64,000 bases of DNA from Phyllosticta citribraziliensis (GCF_038025025.1 NW_027117346.1:1302001-1366000), one strand, 5' to 3'. Positions 5,415 through 37,290 are shown, numbered from the stretch's first letter. A program made the numbers and translations. The notes: generated from the sequence alone by a model not told the origin.

Positions 5415-7166
5415 ATGCTCGCAGCCACCAACTTCACCCACCGCGCTCTGAGTCGTACTCTCGCTCGTCCCAAAAATGGCACAAGATTATGCTACTTGAT
5501 CCGAAGATGGTCATCTACCTCTGCAGAACGCTATTCGACGCCCCTCGCGAAAACGCTCGCGCAGGCTATCGATGTACGGTCTCTCTCAAAATTCTGGATT
5601 TGCGCTGACACGAACAAAGGCGACCGGACCTATTCCTGTCGCAACGTACATGCGCCAATGCCTGACAGCCCCGGAGAGCGGATACTACACAAGACGAATC
5701 GAAGGGGCAGATCAATTCGGCCAAAAAGGCGACTTCGTTACCTCTCCCGAGATATCACAGATTTTTGGAGAATTGGTAGGACTATGGATGATAACAGAGT
5801 GGATGAGTCAGGGCAGAAAGAGTTCAGGCATTCAGTTGATGGAGGTTGGCCCTGGCAGGGGCACTCTGATGGATGACATACTCAGAGTACGACTTGTGTC
5901 CAATCGAGACGGCTGTATTGACAATACAGTAGACCATCCGCAACTTCAAGCCATTCTCCTCGTCGATTGAGAAGGTCTACCTGGTCGAAGCCAGCCCTTC
6001 CTTGCGAGACGCACAGCAAAAACTGCTCTGCGGCGCTAATCCCATGAAGGAGACGGAGATAGGACATGAAAGCGTGTCAAAGTACTCGGACATAAGGATT
6101 GTGTGGACAGAGGATATCAGACTCGTACCGAGAGGTGATTCGGAGAAGCCCCACCTCGTTTCAGAAGCTGACCGTTAAAGACGACGGCAAGACCCCCTTC
6201 ATTGTTGCCCACGAGTTCTTCGACGCCCTCCCAGTCCACGTCTTCCAAAATGTCAAACCTTCGCCCACAAAGCCTGCGGAACACCCGAAAGATTTTTCTC
6301 AAGAGGAGATCATGGCATCGAGTAACATGATGCACAAGAGGCCGCGAGATCCCAATGCCAACGAATGGCGTGAGCTTCTGGTAGCTCCAACATCTCCGGA
6401 TTCGACTCACGCCTCTCTCAACACCCCCATGTCTCTTCGCGACCACACGCCGGTACCCGACTTTCAGCTAATTCTCAGCAAAGGACCTACTCCGCACAGC
6501 ATGTACTTGCCTCATACATCGCCCCGCTATAAGGCTTTGCAAAGCACTCCAGACTCTGTCATTGAAATATCGCCCGAATCCGCGGCTTACGCCTCCGACT
6601 TTGCCGTTCGCATCGGTGGCACTGCCGCGACTTCCCGCGAAAGGAGCTCTGGAGCTTTAGGTTCTGCATCTTTAGACTCCAGAACTACTTCCCGGACCAA
6701 ATCGCAACCCTCTGGCGCTGCTCTGATCCTTGATTACGGGCCGGCATCCACTATTCCCACCAACTCGCTCCGCGGCATCCGCGGCCACAAGGCCGTGTCT
6801 CCTTTCGCGCTCCCCGGAGAAGTCGATGTCAGCGCAGACGTCGATTTCACTGCTCTTGCCGAATCAGCCATCAATGCCTCGCCCAACGTCGAAGTGCATG
6901 GCCCGGTGGACCAGTCGCACTTTTTGGAGTCTATGGGAATCCGAGAACGTGCTGAAATGCTACTAAATCATGCCGCAAGCCGGACCGGCGTCACCGAGGA
7001 GGAGAAGAGGCAATTCCGGGAACGCATTGATGCCGGCTGGAAGCGACTGGTAGACAGAGGGCCGAACGGGATGGGAAAGCTGTATAAAGTCCTCGCAATC
7101 GTGCCGTATCGACCTGACGGCGCAGTCCGGAGGCCGGTTGGATTTGGTGGTGATGTGCAGGTATGA
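5415..7166 (+). CDS. NDUFAF7: Mitochondrial complex I assembly arginine methyltransferase NDUFAF7/MidA; introns 5574-5619, 5887-5932, 6135-6180
   Basis: [71 protein letters not shown]-terminus resembles a basic mitochondrial targeting sequence. Confidence 0.92.
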
Positions 7167-7843
7167 GATGGGGAGGTGAGTGTGCTAATTGCCATGACGC
7201 GGCCTTTTGCAACAGCACTCTTCGATTTGACTCGTGAGTACCCACGAGAAGCTCGACTGGACTTTTCCGTGTTGCATTCGATCGACGTCAATCGAGGGCC
7301 TAGTCATGGTTGGAGGATCAAGAAAATCAAACCCCTCAACGAGTCAAGCTAATGGCGTCGGGGCTGGCCGACTGCAACTTGAGCAGACGGCCCTAGGAGT
7401 TTCTGCACAACTCTTCAGCAAACACCGGCCTTGCTTGAGTCTCAGCCGCAAAATCTTGTTTCTAGGAGAGTCCGTGGAAGACGCAAAGCCCAGGAAACTT
7501 CATCCACCATTATCAAATTTGTGTTAGGGAACATTCTCCATTCCCTCTTTCTTCGCAACCCTCTCAGGGACCTCTATGCTCTGGATTCTCTTTCGCGGGT
7601 CTGTGTCTTTCTCGAGCGCGCCTTCGGAAGCACATCATCGATGCCGACGACGTTCGGGAGCCGTTCCGAGATCGCATCATTCTGGCCTAGGGAGAGCTGA
7701 AATTAGGACTTGAAGAGATTTTTCGCTCCTTCTCAATTCAGTTGTGCACCCTGGAGATGGAACGACAAAACGCCAAGACTGGCCTGAGTGGGTCGGTGAC
7801 CGACGCCACCACCATCCGGCGTCCTCTCCTGACTAGACAGCCG

Positions 7844-7867
7844 AAGGCTTGAGCAAAGGCTTGAGCA
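7844..7867. repeat. Perfect 12-bp tandem duplication AAGGCTTGAGCA x2 upstream of the MFS gene, containing TGAGCAAA (reverse complement of the Mac1-type CuRE TTTGCTCA)
   Basis: Repeat read directly from the sequence; regulatory meaning is inferred. Confidence 0.5.
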
Positions 7868-8065
7868 GAACCCCATGACTCGTTGTCATTCGGCGATCAG
7901 ATCACGTTCGCGGTGGCGCCAGGCCTTTTAGGAAGAAACCTCCAAGGGGTCCATGAGAAAAAAATGGGTCCTAAGCGATTGAGCGGCTAGATTCCGCAGG
8001 GCCCTACTAAACGTTCTATGGACGACAACAACGACGTTCCTACCTTCGTTGTCAAGTTGAACACC

Positions 8066-9667
8066 ATGGCGACCAGAAACCAGGACCACGAAAAGGCGCC
8101 GGAAGCCGCCACTGCTCCATCCCTGGCAACAAGTCAAGGGAACTCTTCGGAGGATGAGCCTGTGCCTGTGGTTCTGCAACCCGCAGCCGCGCCTCCTGCT
8201 TCGCCAAATGGCGGATATGGCTGGGTCTGTTGCTTTGCAATATTCTGGATCAATGCACACACCTGGGGAATCAACAGCGCAAGTCTCCCATCCAAATCAG
8301 ATTGTTTATCGATCCTGCGGCGTCACGTTCAACCTACGTGGCCAATCAATCTCGTCATGAACGCGACGAATGATGGATTGATGAACAACCTGTTTCGATT
8401 ACCTGGCTTGTACCATCTGACTTTATCTCAAGGCTTACGGAATTTTTCTCGCGCATTTCCTGACTACAAACACCTTCCCTGGAGCCACGCGTCTTGACTT
8501 TGCATTCGTCGCCGGCCTCTCTCTTTCGATGGCACAGCTGATTTCGCCCATCGCGACCATCTCGACACGCAAGTTCGGCACTCGCGTGACCTTGTTGATC
8601 GGCGTATTCTTTGAAACCCTGGCCTTGATTGGCGCTTCATTTGCGACAAAGACCTGGCACCTTTTCCTTTCGCAAGGCGTCTGCTTCGGGTGGGGAATGG
8701 GTCTGCTGTTTACAGGGTCCGTCGGAGTGATACCGCAATGGTTCACTACCCGCCGCTCTTTTGCCAACGGCATTGCCACTTCGGGAACGGGCATCGGCGG
8801 ACTCACCTACTCGCTAGCCACTGGTGCCATCATTCAGAACATCGGGGTTGGTTGGGCCTATCGTATCCTGGGCATTTGCGCCTTTTCTGCCAACCTGATA
8901 AGTGCGCTGCTCGTTCGGGACCGCAACAAGCAGGTGAGTAACTTTTTACTATCGGCCAATTTCTCTACAACGCTGACATAACCTTGTAGATTGGAAGCTC
9001 CCAACTTGCCTTTGACTACACACTCCTCAAACGAAAGGAATACCTGCTACTCCTGGGATATGGCATCCTGAGCATCCTGGGCTATGTCGTCCTGCTCTTT
9101 TCTCTTCCAAACTATGCGACTTCGATAGGCCTTACCGCGCACCAAGGCTCGGTAGTAGGAGCCATTTTAAACCTCGGTCAAGCTCTAGGCCGCTCACCCA
9201 TCGGCTATTTCAGCGATTCAGTTGGCCGCCTGAACATGGCTGGCTCCATGACCTTTCTTGCTGGCCTCTTTTCATTGGTTATCTGGACCAACGCGCACAC
9301 CTACGGCGTGCTTATTTTCTTCGCTCTCGTTGCAGGCATGGTCGCAGGCACGTACTGGGCCATCGTGGCACCTGTCACGACCGAAATTATCGGATTGGCA
9401 AACCTTCCATCGGCACTGTGCATCACTTGGCTATCTCTTGTGATCCCGACTACATTTTCGGAAGCTATAGCCCTCCAGATCACGGCATCGAGCGGCAGCT
9501 ATCTCGGGACTCAACTCTTTGCTGGCTTCATGTTCATTGGAGCCGCTACGCTGATGTGGATACTGCGCGCTTGGAAGATTGGGCAGCTGGAGAAATCTGG
9601 GGAGAAAACAGAAACAGTGCAGCACAAAACCTTCGTCGCGAGGTTGTTCGCGATGACGAGAGTGTAA
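8066..9667 (+). CDS. MFS transporter, monocarboxylate-porter (MCH/MCT-like) family; GC-AG intron 8279-8432 and GT-AG intron 8934-8989
   Basis: PNGGYGWVCC...INAHTWGINS|AYGIFL, LFLSQGVCFGWGMGLLF, QWFTTRRSFANGIATSGTGIGG, SDSVGRLN, and about 12 hydrophobic segments. Confidence 0.88.
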
Positions 9668-10051
9668 ACAATTAAGACGGGGAGGAGTAGACCAAAAAAT
9701 TCGAACAGACGACCAACGATTATGTTTCGAGCATCGGCTCAAGAGAGGATCAAATGAACAGCGAGTCCTGGCACTAACTAGCTCACGAAGCTTCATCAAA
9801 ACCGCCTTGGGAGCTGTTGCTCACCACCACAGCCACATCAACCACGCTGGCATTCATCGGCACGACTGCGCTAATGGAACTCCCATTACTTTCACACTTT
9901 TCTTGCAATAATTTAATGTTCATTGTCTACGACGACTCCAGTCTTCCAGAGGAAATAAATGAGAAGTTTTCAGAAAGAATTTCGACTTAAACGCGAAGAA
10001 AACGCCCAATAGGAGAGATGCGCGTCAACAAAAGAAAAAAGATCACACAGA

Positions 10052-11911
10052 CTATGCCCCGAAAATTCCTTCAAAATATCCAGTGGGGTCTTCCCCAGCA
10101 TACCCATTGTACATGTCGGGTCTCACCACCACGTACCCCGCGGTCCCCGCGTCTACTGCCTTCTCGCCACCATCCTCGCTCAGGCGAGCAAAGAACTTGC
10201 TGGTGCCGATCTGCTCTCCACCAGAAACAGCAGGGGATACTTTCCATGAATCCACAAAGCTGGCCCATTCAGCACCTGTAGGCGGAGTCCACGGTGCCGC
10301 ATCTCCCAATGACAGCACGATGAACTTTCCGTAGGAAGGAATGGTGTAGAGGCGTCTTCCAGGACTGTTGGACTGCTCGTGGAAGTAGATATCCGGCGTT
10401 CTTTGGCCAGGCACGAAGATGCCTGCGGGTGCGCCTTGAAGAATTGGCGTATCGGCGGCGTAGTTGACGCCCATGCCTATAGGGGCCGTGTGAGTGCCAA
10501 GTCATGCAAAACCTGCGGGAAGGGAGGCCGAAATGATAGAGTGGGGACCTACCAGTAATGTACGCCGCGTTTCTCTCGATCAGATCGACATACTCAGTTG
10601 CCGTCTTGACGGTCATCCGCACCAACTTCGCCGCCACGTCGATGATTCCCACTGCGCTAGTTCGTCGCTCCGTCTCGTACGACTCAAGAACCTCCGGGAA
10701 CCCCCGTGTCGCGAGATTCAGGCGCCATGCGAGCGCAAACGCGTCCGCAAGTCCAGTGTTAAGTCCCTGGCCTCCGTTGACGGCGTGCACGTGTGCCGCA
10801 TCGCCTGCGAGCGCAATGCGGCCCTTCGGCGAGAAGTAGGTGCGCGCAACGCGCTCTTTGATCTCAAAGGTGCTGAACCACTCGGTGGCGCGAAAGTCAA
10901 CACGGTGGGGCTCCAGGAACTTGCGAATCTCTTCCTCAACGGCTGATTGTGGCCTACGTGTTTGTCCATCATCGAAAAGGACGTAGAACCGCGCCATGCC
11001 ACGCTCTCTGTCCGTCGAATCATGGTCAGTCAAACTGCTACAAGTGGATTTCTGGGCATGTCGCAAACTACGACTTGGCAGACGAACCTTGGAATCCAGC
11101 TCACGCGCGCCTGTCCGTTGACTTGGAACGTGATGATTTCTGGGGCTACGGGGAAGTCTGTGTCGAGAAACGTGTCGAGAACGTGCCAGATCATGTTTGG
11201 CTTTGTTCCCTCAAACGGGATGTCAAGCTGGCTCCGAATAATGGACTTTGCACCGTCTGCGCCAACGGCATACTTGCTGATTACGACAGTATTTGGAAAT
11301 TCTGTCCGAACAAGGTCTTCGCCGTCGATGCTGATCTCCTCGATTCTGGTTGCTTCGCTATTGCGGTGCACAGGAGTGGCGAGCTTCAACTCCAGAGCAC
11401 GCTCAATGTCGGCTTGTCCAATCATCAGGAAATTGGGACGGTGGCAATGCTTCAAACCTGTCCACCAGTGGCTCTGTCTAGAGACGAATTCACCATTGGC
11501 GAAGGTGGAGCTGGCTGTCATTTGGTAAGTCAAGGCGCACGAGTCGAAGAATGGAGATACATACTGTTGCACTTCAAACCATATGGTTCGAGCTGATCAA
11601 GGACGCCCATCAACTCCAGGGACTGCTGTGTTCGTGCATTGAGTGCGTCTGCGCGACCAAGCTGAAGAGCTGTAGCTGATATGTCTACCGGTAATGGCAA
11701 TTAAGCTTCTATCCTGGCAACAAATGTACCATTTGATCTCCATACCTGCGATGAACACTGACAGTCCCAGATTCTGGGCCAACAAGGCGAGAGTAAGACC
11801 AGTCGGTCCAGCTGTTTCCAGAAGTCAGCAAATTGCAGAGATAGCCATAGGAGGTGGGTTCAGCATACCCCCGATTATTGTCAGGTCTGCATGTATTTCC
11901 TTTACCGTCAT
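10052..11911 (-). CDS. FAD-dependent monooxygenase (PheA/TfdB, phenol-hydroxylase-like; FAD_binding_3) with five GT-AG introns
   Basis: Spliced N-terminus MTVKEIHADLTIIG|AGPTGL (GxGxxG), GRADALNART, DG motif AVGADGAKSIIR, GD motif LAGDAAHVHAVNGGQGLNTGLADA, and C-terminal VVVRPDMY. Confidence 0.9.
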
Positions 11912-12380
11912 GGTGATGTTGTTGTTGCTCAGTTTGTTTCTTGACGCTTTTCAAAGACGAAAGAAGAAAGTAAAATACACAAGTCTGCAGCGAAGGGGAC
12001 GGGGTCTTGATTTTCCCTCTTTATGGTTTGCAATTTATGAGGTCTAATAGAAGAGTCTTCAGGCAGGCTGGTCGCCGCGACATCCCATCCTACCACAACA
12101 GGCTAGACTCTCCTGCGAATTCCGTGTCGACCGGATCTCGCCTTGTTTGTGCCCATCCCCGCGAGCTTTGACGATTGTTCCTTTTCGGGCAAAAGGCCTG
12201 GAGGTGGTGGTTTAAGGGCCTCCGAATACGAGGGGAAGCCCAAGATGTCACCCACCCTGAACAATATCTCGCGTGAGACTGAGTCGATTAGGAAGGACCT
12301 TGGTCATTCGTCATTCGGTGCTTTCCGGGGCAATACCTAGTCATGAAGCGAGGTAGCCGCGTGCTTCAGGTACCTTGCTG

Positions 12381-12399
12381 CAGATAATCGTTATCTGAT
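12381..12399. promoter_or_regulatory. Palindromic double GATA element CAGATAA-N3-TTATCTG, including TTATCTGAT (= ATCAGATAA, SreA-type consensus ATCWGATAA)
   Basis: Motif lies in the divergent monooxygenase/ICS intergenic region. A second near match, ATCCGATAA, is at 12689-12697. Confidence 0.5.
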
Positions 12400-13330
12400 G
12401 GAAACCAAAACACGAGATATGCCCGAGAGGTCACCCACCAGTTAGACTGTCTCTGGTGAGCCTGAGTCGAGCAAGGGCGGGAATCATCCTTCACTCGGGG
12501 AAGGCCGGGGATCTACGTCGGTGAGTATTTACTCAGCCCGTCCTGCTAGTCCATGTTCGCTTACTGCTGAAGAAACGAATCAGACTGCCAATATTACTAC
12601 GTCTCGACCGGCTAATAATACGCCAACATCGCGGAAAGCTGCAGACTCCTACTATAAACTCTTACCATGAGTGGGAATAAGCTTGGTGATCCGATAAACT
12701 TTTTCGAGCGGGCCGGCCCGACGTCCCACCCTGGTGTTTTGCAAATTTCCAAAAGTCTCTTGGCGGCAGGGGGACCTGAAGCGGAACCCTACCGCGCGGC
12801 TTACGAACAATAGTCTGGATTACTCTGTACAGGTGGCTATCGTGATCACGGTCCGATTGGTGGTGCAAGAGAAGAAGAAATCAGGTTTGATCACAGGCCT
12901 TACAACTCAGGCGGCACAGGCCATGGCGAGGTTCTCGGCAATTGAGCGTGATGGGTCGAGACGAGGGCGGAGCCTCAACCCCCTACTTACCGTATATGGC
13001 AAGTAGCCAAGGGAACATTCCGTCGGCACCGACCCAGCCCGTTGTATCGGAGGTGTCCATCATGGAGCAGTTCCTGAAAACGGAGTGCTAGGGTAGGGTC
13101 AGTTGTCCTCGGAGGCTGTTACCAACTGAAGAACCTGCTGTGACATGATGGATGGCCAGAGACGGGCTGAATTCTCAGTTGATCGACGAGGACGCGAAAA
13201 TTGTTCGCAACTTACCCCATGATAAAAGAGAGCTGCATTCTTTCGAGATGCGTGGTTTGTTTCCCCAATCTTCTCAGCCACTACCGAGGTCTCGCTACAC
13301 TTCTTTGCATTTCTTTGCTTGTTGTTCATC

Positions 13331-15317
13331 ATGGCACTCCACAACAAGGGACTGTCGCAGGTGGCCGACTCTGTTCTTTCTGTCATTGAATCCTACCGTT
13401 TGAGGGCCTCTCCTTTCGAGCCCAAGACGGTCCAGGATGCGAGAGATACATTCCTCCCCTACCTCACAAGCACGGTACAAGCAGAACAGCCCATAGTTCT
13501 GGTCCTGCCAGCTTTTCCATTCAAGTCGCCAAACTCCAAAGACAAGGTTCTCGGCGCACTGCCCGACAAGGCGGAGGAAGTCTCGCTCCTCCACCTCCAG
13601 TCACTGTGCAACAACATCAAGGACGTTTACGCCCCAGGAGCCGAGTTGTGGATTGTCTCAGATGGCATCGTCTACAATGGTGGGGATGGATCTCTGTTTG
13701 ATCACGACGGCTACTGACAATCATGGCAGACCTTCTTGGAGTCCCTGATGAGACCGTCTACACCTTCGGAGAGACTCTCCGGACCATGGCCAAGGACCTT
13801 GGCTGCTCTTCGATCAAGTTTGCAAGACTTTCCCAGATGCCTTCCCTCGAAAAGAACCTCCCCATCGAAATGCTCGAGTACTCGGACAGCCGCAGCTACG
13901 AGAGGATTGCGCCGTTGGTGCGCCAGAGCCTGGTATCGGCCTTTGGCTCCGCCGACCATGATGTGGACAAGGACATTGCATCCAACCCGGATATTCGGGC
14001 AACATACATGGGATACCTCAAGTACCTTTCCCACGACCTGAAAAAGAATGAGTTGGACTCTGGAGAGGTGTCTGAGTCGTCGGCTTCTTCGACTGCTTCG
14101 TCCGACAGCGAGGTGCCCAAGACCAGCCGCAAGAGCTTCAAGAGACACGTCTCGAGAGTTGCAAAGAGCATGATATATCGTGGCAAATGCTACGCAGCAT
14201 GTGTGCAACAGTGGTATCCGAATGCGGTCCGCCTTTCCATCCACGCCGCCAACTCTTCGACAAAGATTCCAATCTCCGTCATCCCAAGCACGAACGGAAG
14301 GCCCATTACGCCGTGGCACTCGACCATGGTCTGCCGCTTGGACGGTACTTTCCAACCCATGACGAGGAGCGAGGCCGAAGCTTGCTCAGATCTTGAATTG
14401 ATCTACCGCGATGGACAGCCTTGGTGTTTCCGCGAAAAGTCCTCTCTCTACGACATTCCCAACACCACCATCGAGCATGTGTACCCCTGTGGACTGTTGA
14501 TCAAGGCCGCCAAAGGAACTCACATCTCCGACGTCGACATCATGAAGGTGCGCCAACTGGCAGAACGCAACTCGCCGGTGGTTCTGCGTGACTTTGATGG
14601 TACTACGGACCGCCCGACCTTTGTGGACACCGGCCGCAAGATGGGACCCATCATGAAGTGGAAATTTGGCGAGCTGCTTGAAGTCAAGGATGGCGGAGAC
14701 AACACCAGGGGACTCAACAACGTCTTGAGCACTGAGGTAAGCTTTCAGCCCTGAGAATCCTCAACATGCACTGACAATTTCAGCCTATGCCGATGCACTA
14801 CGACGGTCTTTTCAAGATGGTCAACGGAGTCTCGACGCCGCCCAACTTCCAAATGTTTACAGCTCCTACCGCGTCTCCCAAGGGACTGGGCCGCACTCTC
14901 TTTGCCCACTCCAAGCTCGTCTTTCAGTACTTGGCCGAGCCATACACGGCGGATTCTCTTCGAGGCAGGACGTGGCGCGTCGAGACGCACTCCTTCGACG
15001 AAAGCCACTTTGGAAACCTGCCCTTGATCGTGGACCACCCGAAAACCAAGGAACCTTGCATCCGCTATCACGAAGACTGGCCTCAAGAGCGGACTGCGTT
15101 CGAGCCGACCCGCATTCACATTGAGGACGCACCACCGGCAGAAGATGACAGCATCCGCGAAGCCATTGAGAGGGTACTGTATGACTGGCGCGTCTGCCTG
15201 CGCATGGAATGGGAGCAGGGTGACCTCCTCGTCAGCGACAACATTCTCATGATGCACACGCGCGAGGGCTACAAAGCATCCTTCCCGCGCGAGCTCTGGA
15301 GGCTTCACATTGACTGA
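13331..15317 (+). CDS. Isocyanide synthase (DIT1/PvcA domain) fused to a C-terminal Fe(II)/2-oxoglutarate dioxygenase (TauD/PvcB-like), XanB-type architecture; introns 13680-13729 and 14737-14783
   Basis: PvcA/Dit1 motifs LPAFPFKSPN..KVLGALPDKAEEVSL, IVSDGIVYN|DLLGV, VRLSIH, TPWH. TauD part: PVVLRDF, WKFGELLEV, PMHYDG (HxD), WEQGDLLVSDNILMMHTR, RELWRLH. Confidence 0.92.
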
Positions 15318-16560
15318 GGGGTGGTGTCGCTTCTTTGATGTGATGCCGCAGAGCTTCTCGTTCACGTCCTTCATCGCTCTCCTTTAATACCCCTTAGATT
15401 GTCTCTGCATCATCGCTGAAAGAAAGTATTTCAGCGATGTCAAAATTCTCATACAGCGAAGAGACGCAATTTATTTAGGCGGTGCTTTCTTCATCCAAAG
15501 TTTGAATCAACCTTTTGACGGAAAATGGGAGTTACATAGCATGGTTGGAATTCTGAGCAATTTTCTGATTTTACGAGCAATCAATCCTTTGGTAACAGCG
15601 CAGTCGAAAATCCTGTCCGCTCCCCCTGAGTAGAGACCCATGTGAAAGACAGTCTTCCGCTTGACAGCGGCGACCGCTCGAATCAGGTGTCCGAGGCCCT
15701 GCTTGAGTAGTGCACCGAGCGAATAGAGAACTTTAGCAGATTAGTAATAGTGGCTGCCGACGAAGTTGTCCGAAGAGGAAGGCGCTTTGGGCCACCGAAC
15801 TGCCGGTCTCTCGAGGCAAGTCCTACCGCACTGTGCGAGAAGAATTCGCCCCATCCGCGATTCATGTTGATGCCGAGATCCTTCATCTGACTCGGCCTGG
15901 TAGCTGCTGCTGCCCTGTGTCAACCGGTGATGAAAACGAATACGAAGCCGACGGTAACAGAAAGTGTTCTCCCCTGCCGAGCCTGGACAAAAGCTTCGGC
16001 AGAATTGGGAGAGGGGATGAACATCGAAGCTGCGGATCTACAGACGCCTGGAAAATGTACAATTGGGGAAGTCGTCGAGGGGAAATGAGTAGGGCAAGAG
16101 GCAAGTGCGGGACCAAAACCGCGCTATCCGCGGCCGTGAGACATGGAGATAAAACTTCAGTTTGTTGTCGTAGTGAATGCTTTGCATAAACCAAAGTTCA
16201 GTTAATGTGAGGATGAGTCCCCTGGTGGAGAGTTATGGCGTAGATGGACAGTGGCAAGTGTTGGGGAAAAAGCATGCCAGTGGGAGATTAACGAGGAAGC
16301 AATGTATAAAATGAACAAATAATATCTTCGAGTCTGTACAAAACAAACACTTCGCCTGTCTACAAAGAGATTGCCTCGCCCAAATATCTGTCGAACCCTC
16401 TAGTTACAAGTATACGCCTAACGCCGTTGTTGATGCAATCGCTTCCTGCACAGCGAGCCGATTCGCTCATGTACACATCCTCTTCTTCGCCTCCTTCGGC
16501 ACTGCCAAAGCACCGAAGATGAGGCCACTGCTCTTGCTCAAGGAATGTAGTATTTCTTGC

Positions 16561-19500
16561 TTACTGATCCCGCTCTTGGGACCGCTGTTCCGGTGACAGC
16601 GGCGCATCTGGATCAGCGTCCTTTTGCTCAGTCTCTGCGTCAATCATTTCCGTCTCCTTTGACGGCGTATCCGGGCCAGGCTCCTCGTCTTGGCTTGTAA
16701 CCGCCTGCTCCTGGTCCTGTGTCACTTGCCCTTCTCTCTCTAAGCTCCTCGCGGGGCTCATTTCGAAGTCTGCATTGCCCCGCTTTGCCCACTCCATCTC
16801 AGCCAGATCGTTCTTTGCCATTTCCGCCATGAGTGCCAGCGCCTCGGACGGCCGCGGCCCGAGCTCGTGATCAATTTCGCTCGCCTTCATGCCGGTATTG
16901 CGCAGCGCGCGCGTCGCCCAGATCCAGACCTGGACACGGTCTGCTTGGTAGTGGTCGTCCACAAAGTCGTCACCTTTCTTGACCCGAGTGGATTGCTCTT
17001 CGTCCTCGAGCGACGCCTGGTGGTACACGATGCGCAAAAGGGGCAGCGAGGCACGCGACTTGCGGCCCCGCAGCTGCACGCGCGGCGACACGTCGATGAC
17101 GCTGGTGTTTGCAAGCTGCCGCAGCGGTGACGGGCTCAGCTGCTGCCGGTAGTGCCAGGGCTCGGGGGAGCGAGCAAACGTCGACACTTGCCACGGCTTG
17201 GAGGGCTCCTCGGTCGAACACCACGTCGTGACGAGGCGCATTGCATCCCAGGAGCCACGCGCACGCGCGACGCCCTCGATCATCTCACGCAAGTCTTCCT
17301 CCATGATGCAGTTTTCGATCTTGCGGTAGTGCGAGCGGAGGAGCGACGGGCTGAAGAGCGAGTTGCAGAATGTTTGCCATTCGGGGCCGACGGTGGCGAG
17401 AACGCTGAGAATGCCATGGAAGCGGTCGCGGTCGTTGAGCGGCGAAGTACCGCCAAGGGTGCCCTTAACCAGGCGGCGGAATATCACGGAAGCCGCTTCG
17501 AGATGATCCATACGCGTTTCTACTTTTTTGTACACGTCCTCTTTCTGCAGAAACAGTATGTATTTGGCGAGTTTGGCGGCCACACGAGCCAGGAAGTCGC
17601 GATCTTGTTCTTGAGAAAGTATGGTCAGCACGTCCTCAACAGAGCTCCAATCGCCTTGATGCATTTGCGTTTCGAGCATCGCCTCGATGACGCGAATGGA
17701 CATTTCTGACTCGGAGTGCCGGTTGAGGGCGTTGACAATAAGCCGCTGGTTGCCCGTGGCACGTCCAAATTGGATGACTTCGGCCGCGATGCTGGGATGG
17801 TCGTACAGTGACTCTGGGATGAGAGGTCCATCAATGTCCTTGGAGAATAGCAGCCACTCCCCGAATTTGAAGGCCTCTGATTGGCGAGCAAGCGCGAGCA
17901 GTGCAGCTAGAATAGCAGGAGGAAACTGAGGATACAAGACGGGATCTGGCCCTCGAGCCAAGTTGCTGTCGAATTGTGCGGGGACTTGCTGGAGTGTGTG
18001 TCTCGGACCCGCACTCCATTTCTTGAGGTTGCGGAAAAACCTCTCCGTCACGACCTTTTTATTGGAGTCTGTAAGCTTCACCAAAGCCTCAACGGCCTTG
18101 ACAGCTTTGATTTGATCGCCATTCTTGATGTACGACCAGATCACCGAGTGAAAGATTCCTAGAGGAGCCGCCGAGGGGTCCATGATATATGACGGTGCGC
18201 CCAAAGACTGAGAACCCTCTTGAGGAGCGTTCTTGTATCTGGGCGTACCTGGATAAGTGACTGCAAAGTAGCCCAGAAGCTTCTCGGTGACTTGCGGGTC
18301 CATGTCGGGGTTCGCCACGCCAGCCTCCACGAGGCGGAAAATGATGGAATCCCAGGTAGCGCCAATGAGACCCTGGCTCGATCTTTCAAGAAACCCCTTG
18401 AGCTCATTGATCTTGTTGATAATGGCATCGATACTCCATCCAATGTGACCGGCTTTGGTCCCCACGTTGATGCTATTGAGCAGAGCGTCGATGGACGCTG
18501 CAACCACCTCGACGGTGACAGTCCCTTCGACAAGATCGGAGTCTGCCTTTTCTGGGTGCATCCTCTCAAATCTTGCCTTGTCTTGCCAAGTGATATCGAC
18601 CGGATCATCCACCTGCTGCCCTGCGAGGTTGCTCCAATAGATAGCGCCCCACTTTTTGCCGTTGGCAAGGGTAGAGCTTTTGAGATTGACGAGTATCTCA
18701 ATGCCGTCCGTTATCCAAGGCCCGCGCAGGCATGACCAGAGAATCAATTCGAGCCAGACCTCTGGCCCGAGTCCATACGTCGTGCGCACAGTCGGTCGCG
18801 CACTGGGTCTTGAAAGTCCGAAAAATGATAAAGGGCCTCTGGTTTCGGATTCAGAATCACGCAGTTGCGCTTGTACTGCAGCGTCAGAAATGGCTGTGTA
18901 GATCCTGGGCGCCAGCAATGGCAAAACCGGTGGTTGGCAGAGCGAGAATGGCATGTGCGGCGGCACATGCTCGTAGACAGACTCTGGAATGACTCCGTTG
19001 TGATGCATATGAGCAATGAATTCAAGCACGTGGGTCATTATAATCTCCCTTTCCTCTGGATGGCTTCTGACAGCAATAGCGATCATATTGCCCAGGCTCT
19101 GCCATACGCGGCCTATCGCGCCGTTGCGATCGCGGACCCATCTGGCTGGAGACCAATTCACGATGCCGGCTATGGAGCTTGTCAGAGTCTCGTCGGTGAC
19201 CCTTTCAGCCCAAATTGCTTGTCCAGTCGCCTCTTGCAGGGAAGTTGGCGCGTCTGCCCATTGAATTGCGGAGAAGGGGTCTACATGTTCGAGCTGGACT
19301 GGGGCAGGCGGCTTGAACTCGGTTACTGCCTTCACAATCCAGGTCACAGTGTCCCACCTCCCCTCGGTAACAGCCAAATGTGTCAGAAAGTCGACAGGTT
19401 TATCTTGGCGCGACTCGTCCAGGAAGAAACAGACAATCTTTGTCAACAGGTAATCGGGCTCGCCCTCGGTCTCGCCCTGGGTTGTGTGGTCGGGGTCGTC

Positions 19501-19776
19501 TAGATGCGTCTTTCGGAGGCTCAGAGGCAGGTAGCGGTCGAACTCTTCGGCCCAGGCTTTTGGATTAGGACCCAGCTTTTTTCGCAATGATTTTGGAAAG
19601 CGGAGACTGGAAAGGGGAGCCGCCGTTGTGGAAGAGGCGTCGGCGCGACATGATGCGGAATAGGAGAGAAATCTGGGAGCGAAAGTCGGGCGGATTGTAG
19701 CAGCGCAGGCAAGGACTCTGCTGGTCACCGGCCGCAGAGAGGATCGACTGGGCGCATAGCGAAGGGTCAGGTACAT
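16561..19776 (-). CDS. Uncharacterised 1071-aa helical protein, probably mitochondrial
   Basis: Long single ORF with an Arg/Ser-rich, acid-free N-terminal presequence-like region. No family motif recognised. Confidence 0.7.
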   Translation of the reverse strand: MYLTLRYAPSRSSLRPVTSRVLACAATIRPTFAPRFLSYSASCRADASSTTAAPLSSLRFPKSLRKKLGPNPKAWAEEFDRYLPLSLRKTHLDDPDHTTQGETEGEPDYLLTKIVCFFLDESRQDKPVDFLTHLAVTEGRWDTVTWIVKAVTEFKPPAPVQLEHVDPFSAIQWADAPTSLQEATGQAIWAERVTDETLTSSIAGIVNWSPARWVRDRNGAIGRVWQSLGNMIAIAVRSHPEEREIIMTHVLEFIAHMHHNGVIPESVYEHVPPHMPFSLCQPPVLPLLAPRIYTAISDAAVQAQLRDSESETRGPLSFFGLSRPSARPTVRTTYGLGPEVWLELILWSCLRGPWITDGIEILVNLKSSTLANGKKWGAIYWSNLAGQQVDDPVDITWQDKARFERMHPEKADSDLVEGTVTVEVVAASIDALLNSINVGTKAGHIGWSIDAIINKINELKGFLERSSQGLIGATWDSIIFRLVEAGVANPDMDPQVTEKLLGYFAVTYPGTPRYKNAPQEGSQSLGAPSYIMDPSAAPLGIFHSVIWSYIKNGDQIKAVKAVEALVKLTDSNKKVVTERFFRNLKKWSAGPRHTLQQVPAQFDSNLARGPDPVLYPQFPPAILAALLALARQSEAFKFGEWLLFSKDIDGPLIPESLYDHPSIAAEVIQFGRATGNQRLIVNALNRHSESEMSIRVIEAMLETQMHQGDWSSVEDVLTILSQEQDRDFLARVAAKLAKYILFLQKEDVYKKVETRMDHLEAASVIFRRLVKGTLGGTSPLNDRDRFHGILSVLATVGPEWQTFCNSLFSPSLLRSHYRKIENCIMEEDLREMIEGVARARGSWDAMRLVTTWCSTEEPSKPWQVSTFARSPEPWHYRQQLSPSPLRQLANTSVIDVSPRVQLRGRKSRASLPLLRIVYHQASLEDEEQSTRVKKGDDFVDDHYQADRVQVWIWATRALRNTGMKASEIDHELGPRPSEALALMAEMAKNDLAEMEWAKRGNADFEMSPARSLEREGQVTQDQEQAVTSQDEEPGPDTPSKETEMIDAETEQKDADPDAPLSPEQRSQERDQ

Positions 19777-35735: not shown

Positions 35736-37290
35736 ATGGCCTCCGCCTCCGACATCCCGATTCTTGTCCCACCGCGCACGCCCACGCCATCTTCCGATGA
35801 TGATCACCAAGTGGGCCTCGGATTGAACGGGCCTCCTGTCGTCGAGCTATCGCAGGACCCCGATGCCCTCTCACCGCTCTCTGCGACCTTTCCTCAGACC
35901 GTCTCAGCACCAGCCGGTGGCGCCTCGAGCTCTTCTCGTGGACAACTCTCTCCGCGCACGCCTACAAGATACACCTTTATGGATTCCTCACCTGGGGACG
36001 GCGCTCCCTCGGGCGGAAACAGCCCGGAGCTTTCGAGGAACCCGTTCAACTTTCAGCCGCAGCAATATGTCGTAGGCGGCAAATCTCCTCCGAAATCTGT
36101 GAGTGGGCTTTCCAATCGACCCAGAAGCACTCTTCGTGCTAAGACGTTTCTCAGGACCTCGGAAGACGTCGCGGCCACAAGTACAAACACAGCAGCGTCT
36201 CCCACCAGATCTTCCTTGAACCCACTCCCCGCGAACCCCTCAAGGTCCCAGCATCACTGCCCCTACCCACGTTCGCCGAAGTCCGCAGTAGCATGACCCC
36301 CGAGCAAAAGCTCCGAGTCCTTTGGTGTGGGTGCCATCTACTTGTGGGTGGCTTTGTCAAATACAGCGCCCAAGGCTCGACTGCCATGACGGCCTTATCG
36401 CACCTCATGTTCTACGACTTTGTCGGCGCAGGCGTTTGCTGTATTGCGGATATTGGGAGCAACTTTGAGTGTTGGAGGCGCACGAGCCTGAAGCGGCCGT
36501 TTGGGTATGTTGGGCCCACGGGCAGAACCCAGTCTGGGCACATGGCTGACAGCGATCTAGGTTTGAGAGGTTTGAGGTGCTCGCGGGTCTGGCAATGGCT
36601 GTAATTCTTCTTTTTACAGGCTTTGACTTGGTCAGCCATAATCTGCAGCATGCTCTCGAGAACAGCGGTGGTCACGAAGCCCATCATGCCCACCCGGACC
36701 ATTCCAATGAGCGAGTCTCGGCGGGCAGCGTCGATACTGCTGCCCTGGCTGCCATTGTGGCCACGCTCATATCGGCACTTGTGCTGAAGAATCACGCCCG
36801 AATCTCCAAGGTTTTGCGCTTTGCATACCTCGAGTCACTGCCATCGGTCCTCAGCAACCCTTCTCATTTTCTCACCCTCTCTTGCTCCTCGCTTCTCCTA
36901 CTCCTCCCGCTCCTCTCAATTAAGATGTACATTTGGTTGGACCGTACAATCACTGCTACGGTCGCCATTTCGATGACCACCTTGGGCTGCAGGCTCATGT
37001 GGAATCTTGGTCGTATCCTGATGATGTCTTACTCCGGCCCCGGCCTGGAGAGTCTTTTGCGGATGATCGAAGCCGATCCAGCCGTGTCAAATGTCGAAGA
37101 AGCCAAAGTTTGGCAAGTCCACTATGGTCTGTGTCAAGCAAACTTCAAGCTGCGGGTTCGAAGTTTAGATGACATGGCCAGACTGCGGGAACGCATTCAA
37201 AGTCTTGTGCGCAACAAGCTTGGCGGAGGGTACGGAGCTGGTGGGCAGAAATGGGAAGTGAGTACCCAATTACTGTTGGACAAGGACTAA
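35736..37290 (+). CDS. Cation diffusion facilitator (Zrg17-like zinc transporter subunit); two introns (~36099-36154, ~36506-36560)
   Basis: RRRGHKYKHSSVSHQIFLEP, LSHLMFYD, RPFG|FERFEVLAG, His-rich loop GGHEAHHAHPDH, NPSHFLTL, KVWQVHYGLC. Confidence 0.82.

Follow-up and report, generated by a model that had tools for sequence, protein, structure and literature searches.

A stretch of 64,000 nucleotides from Phyllosticta citribraziliensis (NW_027117346.1:1302001-1366000; in the following 'the window') carries, at positions 8066-15317, three neighbouring genes: one for an isocyanide synthase (ICS) fused to an Fe(II)/2-oxoglutarate (Fe/2OG) dioxygenase of the TauD type (ICS-TauD), one for a group A FAD-dependent aromatic-ring monooxygenase (FMO) and one for a transporter of the major facilitator superfamily (MFS). 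Judged by the relatives of these genes in other fungi, the conserved unit is the ICS-TauD/FMO pair and not the trio. On balance, we favour a cassette of two genes, transcribed divergently, as the functional unit, with a proposed pathway from tyrosine to a ring-oxygenated vinyl isocyanide. This is built on observations of intact, transcribed and spliced genes, on the identity of their domains, on their catalytic residues, on their co-localisation and on the congruence of their phylogenies.

Conservation of the ICS-TauD/FMO gene pair

Relatives of the two genes were collected as full-length matches of the ICS exon (n=105) and as matches of the FMO exon (2,726, of which the best 120 were listed), and organism, contig identity (equal size) and locus tag were compared between the two match lists. 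ICS-TauD is found on an equal-sized contig, or in one case instead under an adjacent locus tag, for 26 of the 120 listed FMO relatives; 13 of these contigs are smaller than 500 kb and six are 4-8 Mb large, a size at which sharing means little. Direct adjacency, identified by consecutive accessions, by consecutive locus tags or by adjoining table rows (Table S4; Nickles et al., PMC10153163), was found in 12 other species. Four of these, in which a FAD_binding_3 gene adjoins ICS-TauD, come from the accessible part of Table S4: the basidiomycete Auricularia subglabra, Saccharata proteae, Aplosporella prunicola and Hirsutella minnesotensis. The others are Neoarthrinium moseri and Neonectria ditissima as well as Diplodia seriata, D. 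intermedia, Lasiodiplodia theobromae, L. hormozganensis, Neofusicoccum parvum and N. ribis. Two further species, Aspergillus tanneri and Coccidioides posadasii, have ICS-TauD and FMO three genes apart; for Coccidioides, this distance (of a FAD_binding_3 gene) is taken from the accessible part of Table S4.

Quick maximum-likelihood trees with SH-aLRT as the only support measure were calculated from rows chosen by hand from the match lists (45 for ICS, 39 for FMO); Phyllosticta was represented by the window ICS-TauD in the ICS tree and by the P. capitalensis orthologue (P0107) in the FMO tree. The two trees mirror each other: in both, Phyllosticta belongs to an 11-row clade with an SH-aLRT of 100, which in the ICS tree consists of Botryosphaeriales and Auricularia. 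Auricularia (P0010, P0114) is nested within this clade with a support of 98 in the ICS tree and of 100 in the FMO tree, and the position of its copy among the Botryosphaeriales points to horizontal transfer of the pair. The coupling between ICS-TauD and the flavin monooxygenase, which a preliminary description of the locus had proposed from the window alone, is thus supported by direct adjacency in 12 other species and by congruent trees. The two genes of the cassette would have passed together through Dothideo-, Sordario-, Eurotio- and Leotiomycetes, by inheritance and occasionally by transfer.

A separate observation concerns Acanthamoeba castellanii: its FMO (P0116) is sister to the Auricularia FMO (support 99) and is 70% identical to the window exon. 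ICS proteins were reported from one species of Amoebozoa in the accessible text of Lim et al. 2018 (PMC5974471).

Pairs of this type are already present in published cluster tables. As far as the accessible parts of Nickles et al. 2023 (PMC10153163) go, the backbone of gene cluster family (GCF) 6 is an ICS-TauD, and the family occurs in Eurotio-, Sordario-, Leotio- and Dothideomycetes and in a single basidiomycete, PF01494 (FAD_binding_3) occurs at least 412 times in Table S4, and Phyllosticta has 0 occurrences among the 3,300 genomes. The relatives of the window pair span the same classes, including the basidiomycete Auricularia, and the pair fits GCF 6, an assignment inferred from backbone and taxonomic spread. 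No product is named for GCF 6 in the accessible text of Nickles et al., and the literature searched contained no named product for the ICS-TauD/FMO family; the accessible parts of PMC13005658, PMC13439684, PMC13071329, PMC11509074 and bioRxiv 10.64898/2026.09.15.751736 hold neither a product nor a characterised ICS-TauD/PF01494 cluster. With ICS-TauD beside FAD_binding_3 already in the accessible cluster tables of 2023 and GCF 6 as a fitting family, the novelty of the locus had been overrated in the preliminary description: the gene pair is real and well supported, but unsurprising to a specialist, and the Phyllosticta locus is a real, ordinary new member of a catalogued, chemically uncharacterised cluster family that does not overturn current understanding.

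Among the natural-product genes of fungi, isocyanide clusters form a large class, with a known product in very few cases. Here, one widely distributed ICS family reduces to two genes, and the product predicted for it is concrete and can be tested: a vinyl isocyanide that derives from tyrosine and is oxygenated on its ring. Heterologous expression of such a cassette would be cheap to attempt. To our knowledge, and with no search aimed at it, this would be the first isocyanide predicted in Phyllosticta, a genus with endophytes and pathogens of citrus.

Domains, catalytic residues and predicted chemistry

Domains were called by Pfam profile searches with curated cut-offs, both on the exons and open reading frames (ORFs) of the window and on whole orthologues. 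The earlier calls of DIT1_PvcA, TauD, FAD_binding_3 and MFS all proved correct, and the E-values for the three genes are far beyond chance. The ICS-TauD protein contains PF05141 and PF02668 only: the match to DIT1_PvcA has an E-value of 9.6e-84 (281.5 bits, cut-off 26.4) and the match to TauD one of 1.4e-30. Among solved structures, the ICS domain matches PvcA (3e59, 1.7e-29) and a Tyr/Trp isonitrile synthase (9dhm, 6.6e-27), and its motifs LPAFPFKSPN, RLSIH and TPWH are kept in at least 97% of the 105 homologues. The dioxygenase domain matches PIsnB (7tcl, 2.9e-24) and PvcB (3eat, 3.1e-22). Its Fe triad and 2OG-binding arginine align with the LHWDG and LLHGRE motifs of these two enzymes and are conserved in the homologues (H457 in 104/105, D459 in 105/105, H610 in 101/105 and R612 in 100/105).

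Two further positions of the dioxygenase domain bear on the type of product. In the alignment to 7tcl, K463 corresponds to K107 of PIsnB and H548 to N188; K463 is kept in 101 and H548 in 103 of the 105 ICS-TauD homologues, XanB-named entries included. According to the accessible text of PMC9467999, enzymes whose decarboxylative desaturation leads to vinyl isonitriles carry Lys or Arg at the position of K107 and Asn or His at the position of N188, whereas PvcB-type enzymes, which make isocyanoacrylate, have Leu and Cys at the same two positions. By these marker residues, a rule that is correlative only, the dioxygenase domain fits the PIsnB type.

FAD_binding_3 is found on two exons of the window FMO (1.4e-22 and 1.4e-11; 80.8 and 44.7 bits, cut-off 22) and, with an E-value of 1.8e-57 (195.6 bits), on the orthologue P0107. 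The C-terminal Rng_hyd_C domain reaches 25.1 bits on the window exon, short of the cut-off of 27.5, and 28.1 bits on P0107. All three fingerprints of such enzymes (GxGxxG, DG and GD) are present in the window translation, as GAGPTG, GADGAKS and GDAAH. The nearest solved relatives are VibO (7yj0, 5.6e-45) and phenol 2-monooxygenases (~1e-35; phenol hydroxylase 9.2e-36), all of which act on phenol rings according to the accessible text of PMC10257657. The same text describes VibO's C-terminal domain as peroxiredoxin-like and reports that VibO converts a para-substituted phenol to an oxepinone, with catechol as a side product. VibO and the phenol hydroxylase PHHY (1pn0, 1foh) share group A membership and FAD motifs with the window FMO and oxygenate their substrates ortho to the phenolic hydroxyl group; however, they are larger (~650 aa in comparison to 511 aa), act on other substrates and have no known link to an isocyanide synthase.

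Substrate, product, order of steps and every chemical step of the pathway that we propose are inferred from these data. The ICS family uses ribulose-5-phosphate as carbon donor, and in the first step the ICS domain would use it to turn L-tyrosine into tyrosine isonitrile. The fused Fe/2OG domain would then carry out a decarboxylative desaturation of the PIsnB type, yielding 4-(2-isocyanovinyl)phenol, and the phenol-hydroxylase-like FMO would finally oxygenate the phenol ring. In this last step, the ring would most likely be hydroxylated in ortho position, giving a catechol vinyl isocyanide that would probably be a small molecule able to bind metals; ring expansion would be a less likely outcome. 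Tyrosine is the suggested substrate because the partner FMO would be phenol-specific, which we regard as our best argument, and the tyrosine-derived vinyl isocyanide already envisaged in the preliminary description is compatible with both the PIsnB-type markers K463/H548 and the phenol-hydroxylase-like nature of the FMO.

The locus shares features with several characterised isocyanide systems but belongs to none of them. XanB, from the xan (xanthocillin) cluster of Aspergillus fumigatus, has the same ICS-dioxygenase fusion architecture as the window protein; with exon 2 of the window ICS, A. fumigatus XanB (P0086) shares 36% identity and a XanB-named protein (P0069) 37%. In the ICS tree, the window ICS-TauD is set apart from four XanB-type rows by branches with an SH-aLRT of 100. 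The partner enzyme in xan is a dimerising P450, while that of the window locus is a flavin monooxygenase, and among 33 ORF translations scanned across the window there was no match to p450, DJ-1/PfpI or Zn_clus and thus no xan-type P450 (XanG), isocyanide hydratase (XanA) or transcription factor (XanC), although short exons could escape such a scan. The locus is not xan, as it falls outside the XanB clade and the scanned ORFs around it include no P450, hydratase or transcription factor. The dit1/dit2 and crm systems have the DIT1_PvcA domain in common with the window protein. However, Dit1 is a single-domain protein paired divergently with the P450 Dit2, while the window ICS is fused to TauD, and CrmA carries NRPS-like domains (AMP-binding, PP-binding, transferase) that the window protein lacks; the locus is therefore neither dit (no P450 was found among the scanned ORFs and the ICS is not single-domain) nor crm (no NRPS-like domains). 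The distinction from xan, crm and dit1/dit2 that had been drawn at first reading holds, by the Pfam scan of ORFs and by the ICS tree.

The paerucumarin genes pvcABCD of Pseudomonas aeruginosa follow the same logic, with an ICS, an Fe/2OG desaturase and a flavin ring hydroxylase acting in this order on a tyrosine skeleton, and among solved structures PvcA and PvcB rank best or close to best as matches of the window domains. However, ICS and dioxygenase are fused in the window and separate in pvcABCD, and by the marker residues in the accessible literature PvcB is of the Leu/Cys type, producing isocyanoacrylate, while the window domain is of the Lys/His, PIsnB type. PvcC/D is a two-component system of the HpaB/C type and not homologous to PF01494, while the only flavoenzyme at the window locus is a single-component PF01494 protein. 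The locus is therefore not a pvcABCD member: its hydroxylase belongs to another family and its dioxygenase is of another type. The pvcABCD parallel of the preliminary description stands for function and logic, but not for homology of the hydroxylase. With PIsnB of the rhabduscin pathway (IsnA/IsnB; 7tcl, 2.9e-24), the window dioxygenase shares both vinyl-isonitrile marker residues; there, however, the bacterial genes are separate and come without a flavin monooxygenase, while those in the window are fused and accompanied by the FMO. The tailoring step of the rhabduscin pathway is a glycosyltransferase.

A link to the cyclopentyl isocyanides of Trichoderma was also considered and found no support: cluster 74 of T. 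atroviride has no FAD_binding_3 gene, and no Trichoderma species has both genes on one contig among the matches listed (105 for ICS, the best 120 of 2,726 for FMO).

Gene models, transcripts and surroundings

The coordinates and orientations first proposed for the three genes agree with the gene models and Pfam matches (Table 1). The start codons of FMO and ICS-TauD are head to head, the stop codons of MFS (9667) and FMO (10052) are convergent with 384 bp between them, and the spliced frames of all three genes are open. The ICS-TauD translation is identical in 629/629 residues to an annotated P. citribraziliensis protein (P0001); the matching NCBI protein carries the name "putative pyoverdine/dityrosine biosynthesis protein". 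Over 510 aa, FMO and its orthologue in P. capitalensis (P0107) share 90% identity, and MFS, which matches MFS_1 with an E-value of 1.4e-16 on its exon 2, is 94.6% identical to the orthologue of P. citricarpa (P0226).

Table 1. Features of the locus, in window coordinates
Feature	Position	Strand	Details and basis
MCT/MCH-like MFS transporter gene	8066..9667	+	3 exons, 463 aa; Pfam MFS_1, open spliced frame
MFS exons	~8066-8278, 8433-8933, 8990-9667	+	spliced model and RNA contig joints
Group A FAD-dependent aromatic-ring monooxygenase (FMO) gene	10052..11911	-	6 exons, 511 aa; FAD_binding_3
FMO introns	~10474-10549, 11008-11087, 11515-11564, 11685-11745, 11812-11868	-	spliced in X5 and X6
Shared divergent FMO/ICS intergenic region, 1419 bp	11912..13330	.	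gene coordinates
50-nt direct repeat, two copies	12238-12287, 12421-12470	.	repeat search; copies 76% identical
ICS-TauD fusion gene	13331..15317	+	3 exons, 629 aa; identity to P. citribraziliensis protein
ICS-TauD exons	~13331-13679, 13730-14736, 14784-15317	+	spliced model and RNA contig joints
Isocyanide synthase domain DIT1_PvcA, aa 47-334	13469..14382	+	Pfam; intron 1 inside
Fe(II)/2-oxoglutarate dioxygenase domain TauD/TfdA, aa 384-626	14530..15305	+	Pfam; intron 2 inside

Four public runs were compared with positions 7000-17000, all of them as assembled contigs, which give presence and splice joints but not expression levels. X1 and X2 stem from two studies, match the window at 100% identity and are recorded as "RNA? 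(a guess)"; we treat them as RNA because their contigs show spliced joints. X5 and X6 are plant-sample RNA-seq runs of one study; with only 90-95% identity to the window they come from a related species. All nine introns of the three models (two in MFS, five in FMO, two in ICS-TauD) are confirmed in RNA contigs: both ICS-TauD introns are spliced in X1, X5 and X6, all five FMO introns in X5 and X6, and MFS intron 2 in X1, X5 and X6, while the joint of MFS intron 1 is present in all four runs, carrying one extra letter in X5 and X6. This last intron (8279-8432) has a non-canonical GC..AG donor, confirmed by the X1 and X2 contigs. Contig depth in X5/X6 (MFS 9-11, FMO 45-46, ICS 60-68) cannot rank the genes and was not used as evidence.

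In X1, one contig (8988-11525) spans the body of FMO unspliced, and GT..AG joints of the + strand are found at 11523>11619 (X1, X2), 11880>12059 (X1) and 12519>12572 (X1). The + strand joints of X1 run into the ICS coding exons, with a leader of at least 1.4 kb that has 16 upstream ATGs, and this spliced + strand transcript (partly also seen in X2) is antisense to the 5' exons of FMO. As contigs cannot phase strands, the antisense/long-leader picture in X1 is recorded as an observation only; the transcript over FMO could be a regulatory antisense RNA or read-through from MFS.

The intergenic region between FMO and ICS-TauD probably holds a bidirectional promoter, and in culture-type runs it also belongs to the spliced + strand leader. 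A hidden gene in this region or in the leader was considered and rejected: within the intergenic 1.4 kb and the spliced leader, the longest ORF has 83 aa and nothing is gene-like. The two copies of the 50-nt direct repeat share the cores GTCACCCACC and CTGAGTCGA, and the repeat, which lies in this shared region, is a candidate for a shared regulatory element.

The locus is flanked by housekeeping genes (protein kinase, NDUFAF7, ATG11, CENP-H, SURP protein, TOR), and the position of NDUFAF7 upstream of the trio, as previously described, is confirmed by a Methyltransf_28 match. Downstream of ICS-TauD, on the - strand, there is an ORF of 1071 aa (16561-19776), labelled mitochondrial-type at first reading, that has no Pfam match; a run of T at 16292 in an X2 contig resembles the poly(A) end of a transcript of this ORF. 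The X5 and X6 contigs extend beyond the ICS stop, with joints 15415>15520 (CT..AC) and 15582>15749 within 15415-15806, which could reflect a transcript converging from the - strand or a diverged sequence of the related species.

The window has a Cation_efflux (CDF) ORF at 36577-37290, 21 kb downstream of ICS-TauD, with a weak match of 24.3 bits (cut-off 26.6). In the accessible cluster tables, a Cation_efflux gene adjoins ICS-TauD in cluster 1141 of Saccharata proteae and a P-type cation ATPase is two genes away in Coccidioides. A link to metals is possible, as is coincidence.

The transporter and alternative readings

Relatives of the MFS exon are very many and 58-76% identical across Dothideomycetes and lichen fungi, which fits a vertically inherited transporter of the housekeeping type. 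In 5/5 related genera, the closest relative of the window MFS is not on the contig of ICS or FMO (Saccharata, Aplosporella, Diplodia intermedia, Lasiodiplodia theobromae, Botryosphaeria dothidea), and only in P. capitalensis do the contig sizes agree, with MFS (P0227) and ICS (P0003) both on a contig of 4,210,002 bp. P. citribraziliensis has a second MFS copy on another contig, which is 65% identical to the window MFS exon and 67% identical to P0226; in a tree of 27 rows the two Phyllosticta copies are sisters (support 91), with a stem branch of 0.39 for the copy at the locus and of 0.24 for the other paralogue. By identities and tree position, the locus MFS appears as a Phyllosticta-specific duplicate of a widespread, housekeeping-type MCH-like transporter. 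As a genus-specific paralogue its cluster membership is doubtful, and the transporter beside the pair should not be assumed to be part of the pathway. The trio as a conserved unit, as initially proposed, is thus not upheld by the relatives outside Phyllosticta.

Four gene models of Xylariales (P0165, P0174, P0199, P0207; 924-933 aa) join an FMO to an MCT-like MFS on one strand and are either true fusions or merged neighbouring genes. With 29% identity to the Phyllosticta MFS and a branch of 4.66 changes per column, their MFS part is not orthologous to it. Transporters of this broad type thus seem to recur beside FMO, with the Phyllosticta gene as a local acquisition, to judge from its tree position, that may have been recruited as an exporter.

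Whether all three genes could nevertheless form one minimal cluster, with the MFS as dedicated exporter of a hydroxylated isocyanide, was weighed on this background. The short convergent distance between MFS and FMO, the retention of the MFS beside the pair in P. capitalensis, spliced RNA contigs of all three genes in the X5/X6 relative and the longer stem branch of the locus copy would all agree with such a role, as would the fact that in 4/120 listed FMO models (all Xylariales) an unrelated MCT-like MFS is joined to FMO or next to it and that, according to the accessible text of PMC10153163, an MFS is present in ~60% of ICS clusters. However, the closest MFS relatives are off the ICS/FMO contig in all five genera, the Xylariales transporter is too distant to be an orthologue and the published cluster rows of Saccharata, Aplosporella and Auricularia, as far as accessible, have no MFS beside the pair; we regard a dedicated exporter as possible but doubtful. 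At the other extreme, the three genes could be unrelated neighbours that share no pathway, a situation to which the housekeeping flanks (kinase, NDUFAF7, ATG11, CENP-H, TOR) and the lack of a transcription factor, P450 or isocyanide hydratase among the scanned ORFs would be suited, but adjacency of the pair in 12 other species, including a basidiomycete, together with congruent trees makes this highly improbable.

Two alternatives accept the pair but assign another reaction to the FMO. It could perform a VibO-like ring expansion of the Baeyer-Villiger type, or a dearomatising oxygenation, and deliver a rearranged, non-aromatic isocyanide. VibO is the best solved match (5.6e-45, compared to 9.2e-36 for phenol hydroxylase) and yields both oxepinone and catechol from a para-substituted phenol (PMC10257657, accessible text), but the match covers the FAD and substrate domains generically, no residues are known to us as diagnostic for ring expansion and most of the listed relatives are plain hydroxylases, so that we consider this outcome rather unlikely. 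The FMO could also act at another point or on another substrate, either on a phenolic precursor before the isonitrile is formed or in the detoxification or degradation of the isocyanide or of host phenolics, in which case the linkage would reflect shared regulation. Relatives of phenol hydroxylase are often catabolic, and in X1 and X2 the FMO region is largely unspliced or antisense while ICS is spliced; in X5 and X6, however, FMO and ICS both give fully spliced contigs, and tight adjacency over four classes with mirrored phylogenies is what would be expected of consecutive steps. We judge this alternative to be quite unlikely.

Several points weigh against the tyrosine-to-vinyl-isocyanide cassette that we favour. 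Only the kind of partner enzyme and precedent within the family lead to the choice of tyrosine, and the ring expansion by VibO means that hydroxylation is not the sole possible outcome of the FMO reaction. The K/H rule is correlative, and single-point mutants left the product unswitched (PMC9467999, accessible text). ICS-TauD also occurs without a neighbouring FMO, in Auricularia cluster 128 and in Trichoderma atroviride cluster 74, and in Curvularia kusanoi the locus tags of ICS-TauD and FMO are 114 apart. With an unspliced contig over FMO and joints of the + strand, much of the FMO signal in X1 may be antisense or read-through, and ICS-TauD and FMO may not be co-expressed in the X1 condition. 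Finally, the retention of the MFS in P. capitalensis and the Xylariales FMO-MFS models leave room for a role of the transporter.

As the most far-reaching reading, one could picture an ancient, self-sufficient and horizontally mobile pair that moved from Botryosphaeriales-like ascomycetes to Auricularia and probably to Acanthamoeba, with a catechol or ring-expanded vinyl isocyanide as a copper/iron metallophore, a duplicated monocarboxylate-type transporter recruited in Phyllosticta and control by overlapping antisense/long-leader transcription; in its entirety, this scenario is unlikely.

In two of the accessible published clusters, the pair is at the edge of a larger predicted cluster: Aplosporella cluster 1172 includes a non-ribosomal peptide synthetase (NRPS), a P450, a GMC oxidoreductase and a GST, and Hirsutella cluster 335 a type III polyketide synthase. 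Depending on the lineage, the pair may thus supply one pathway or another.

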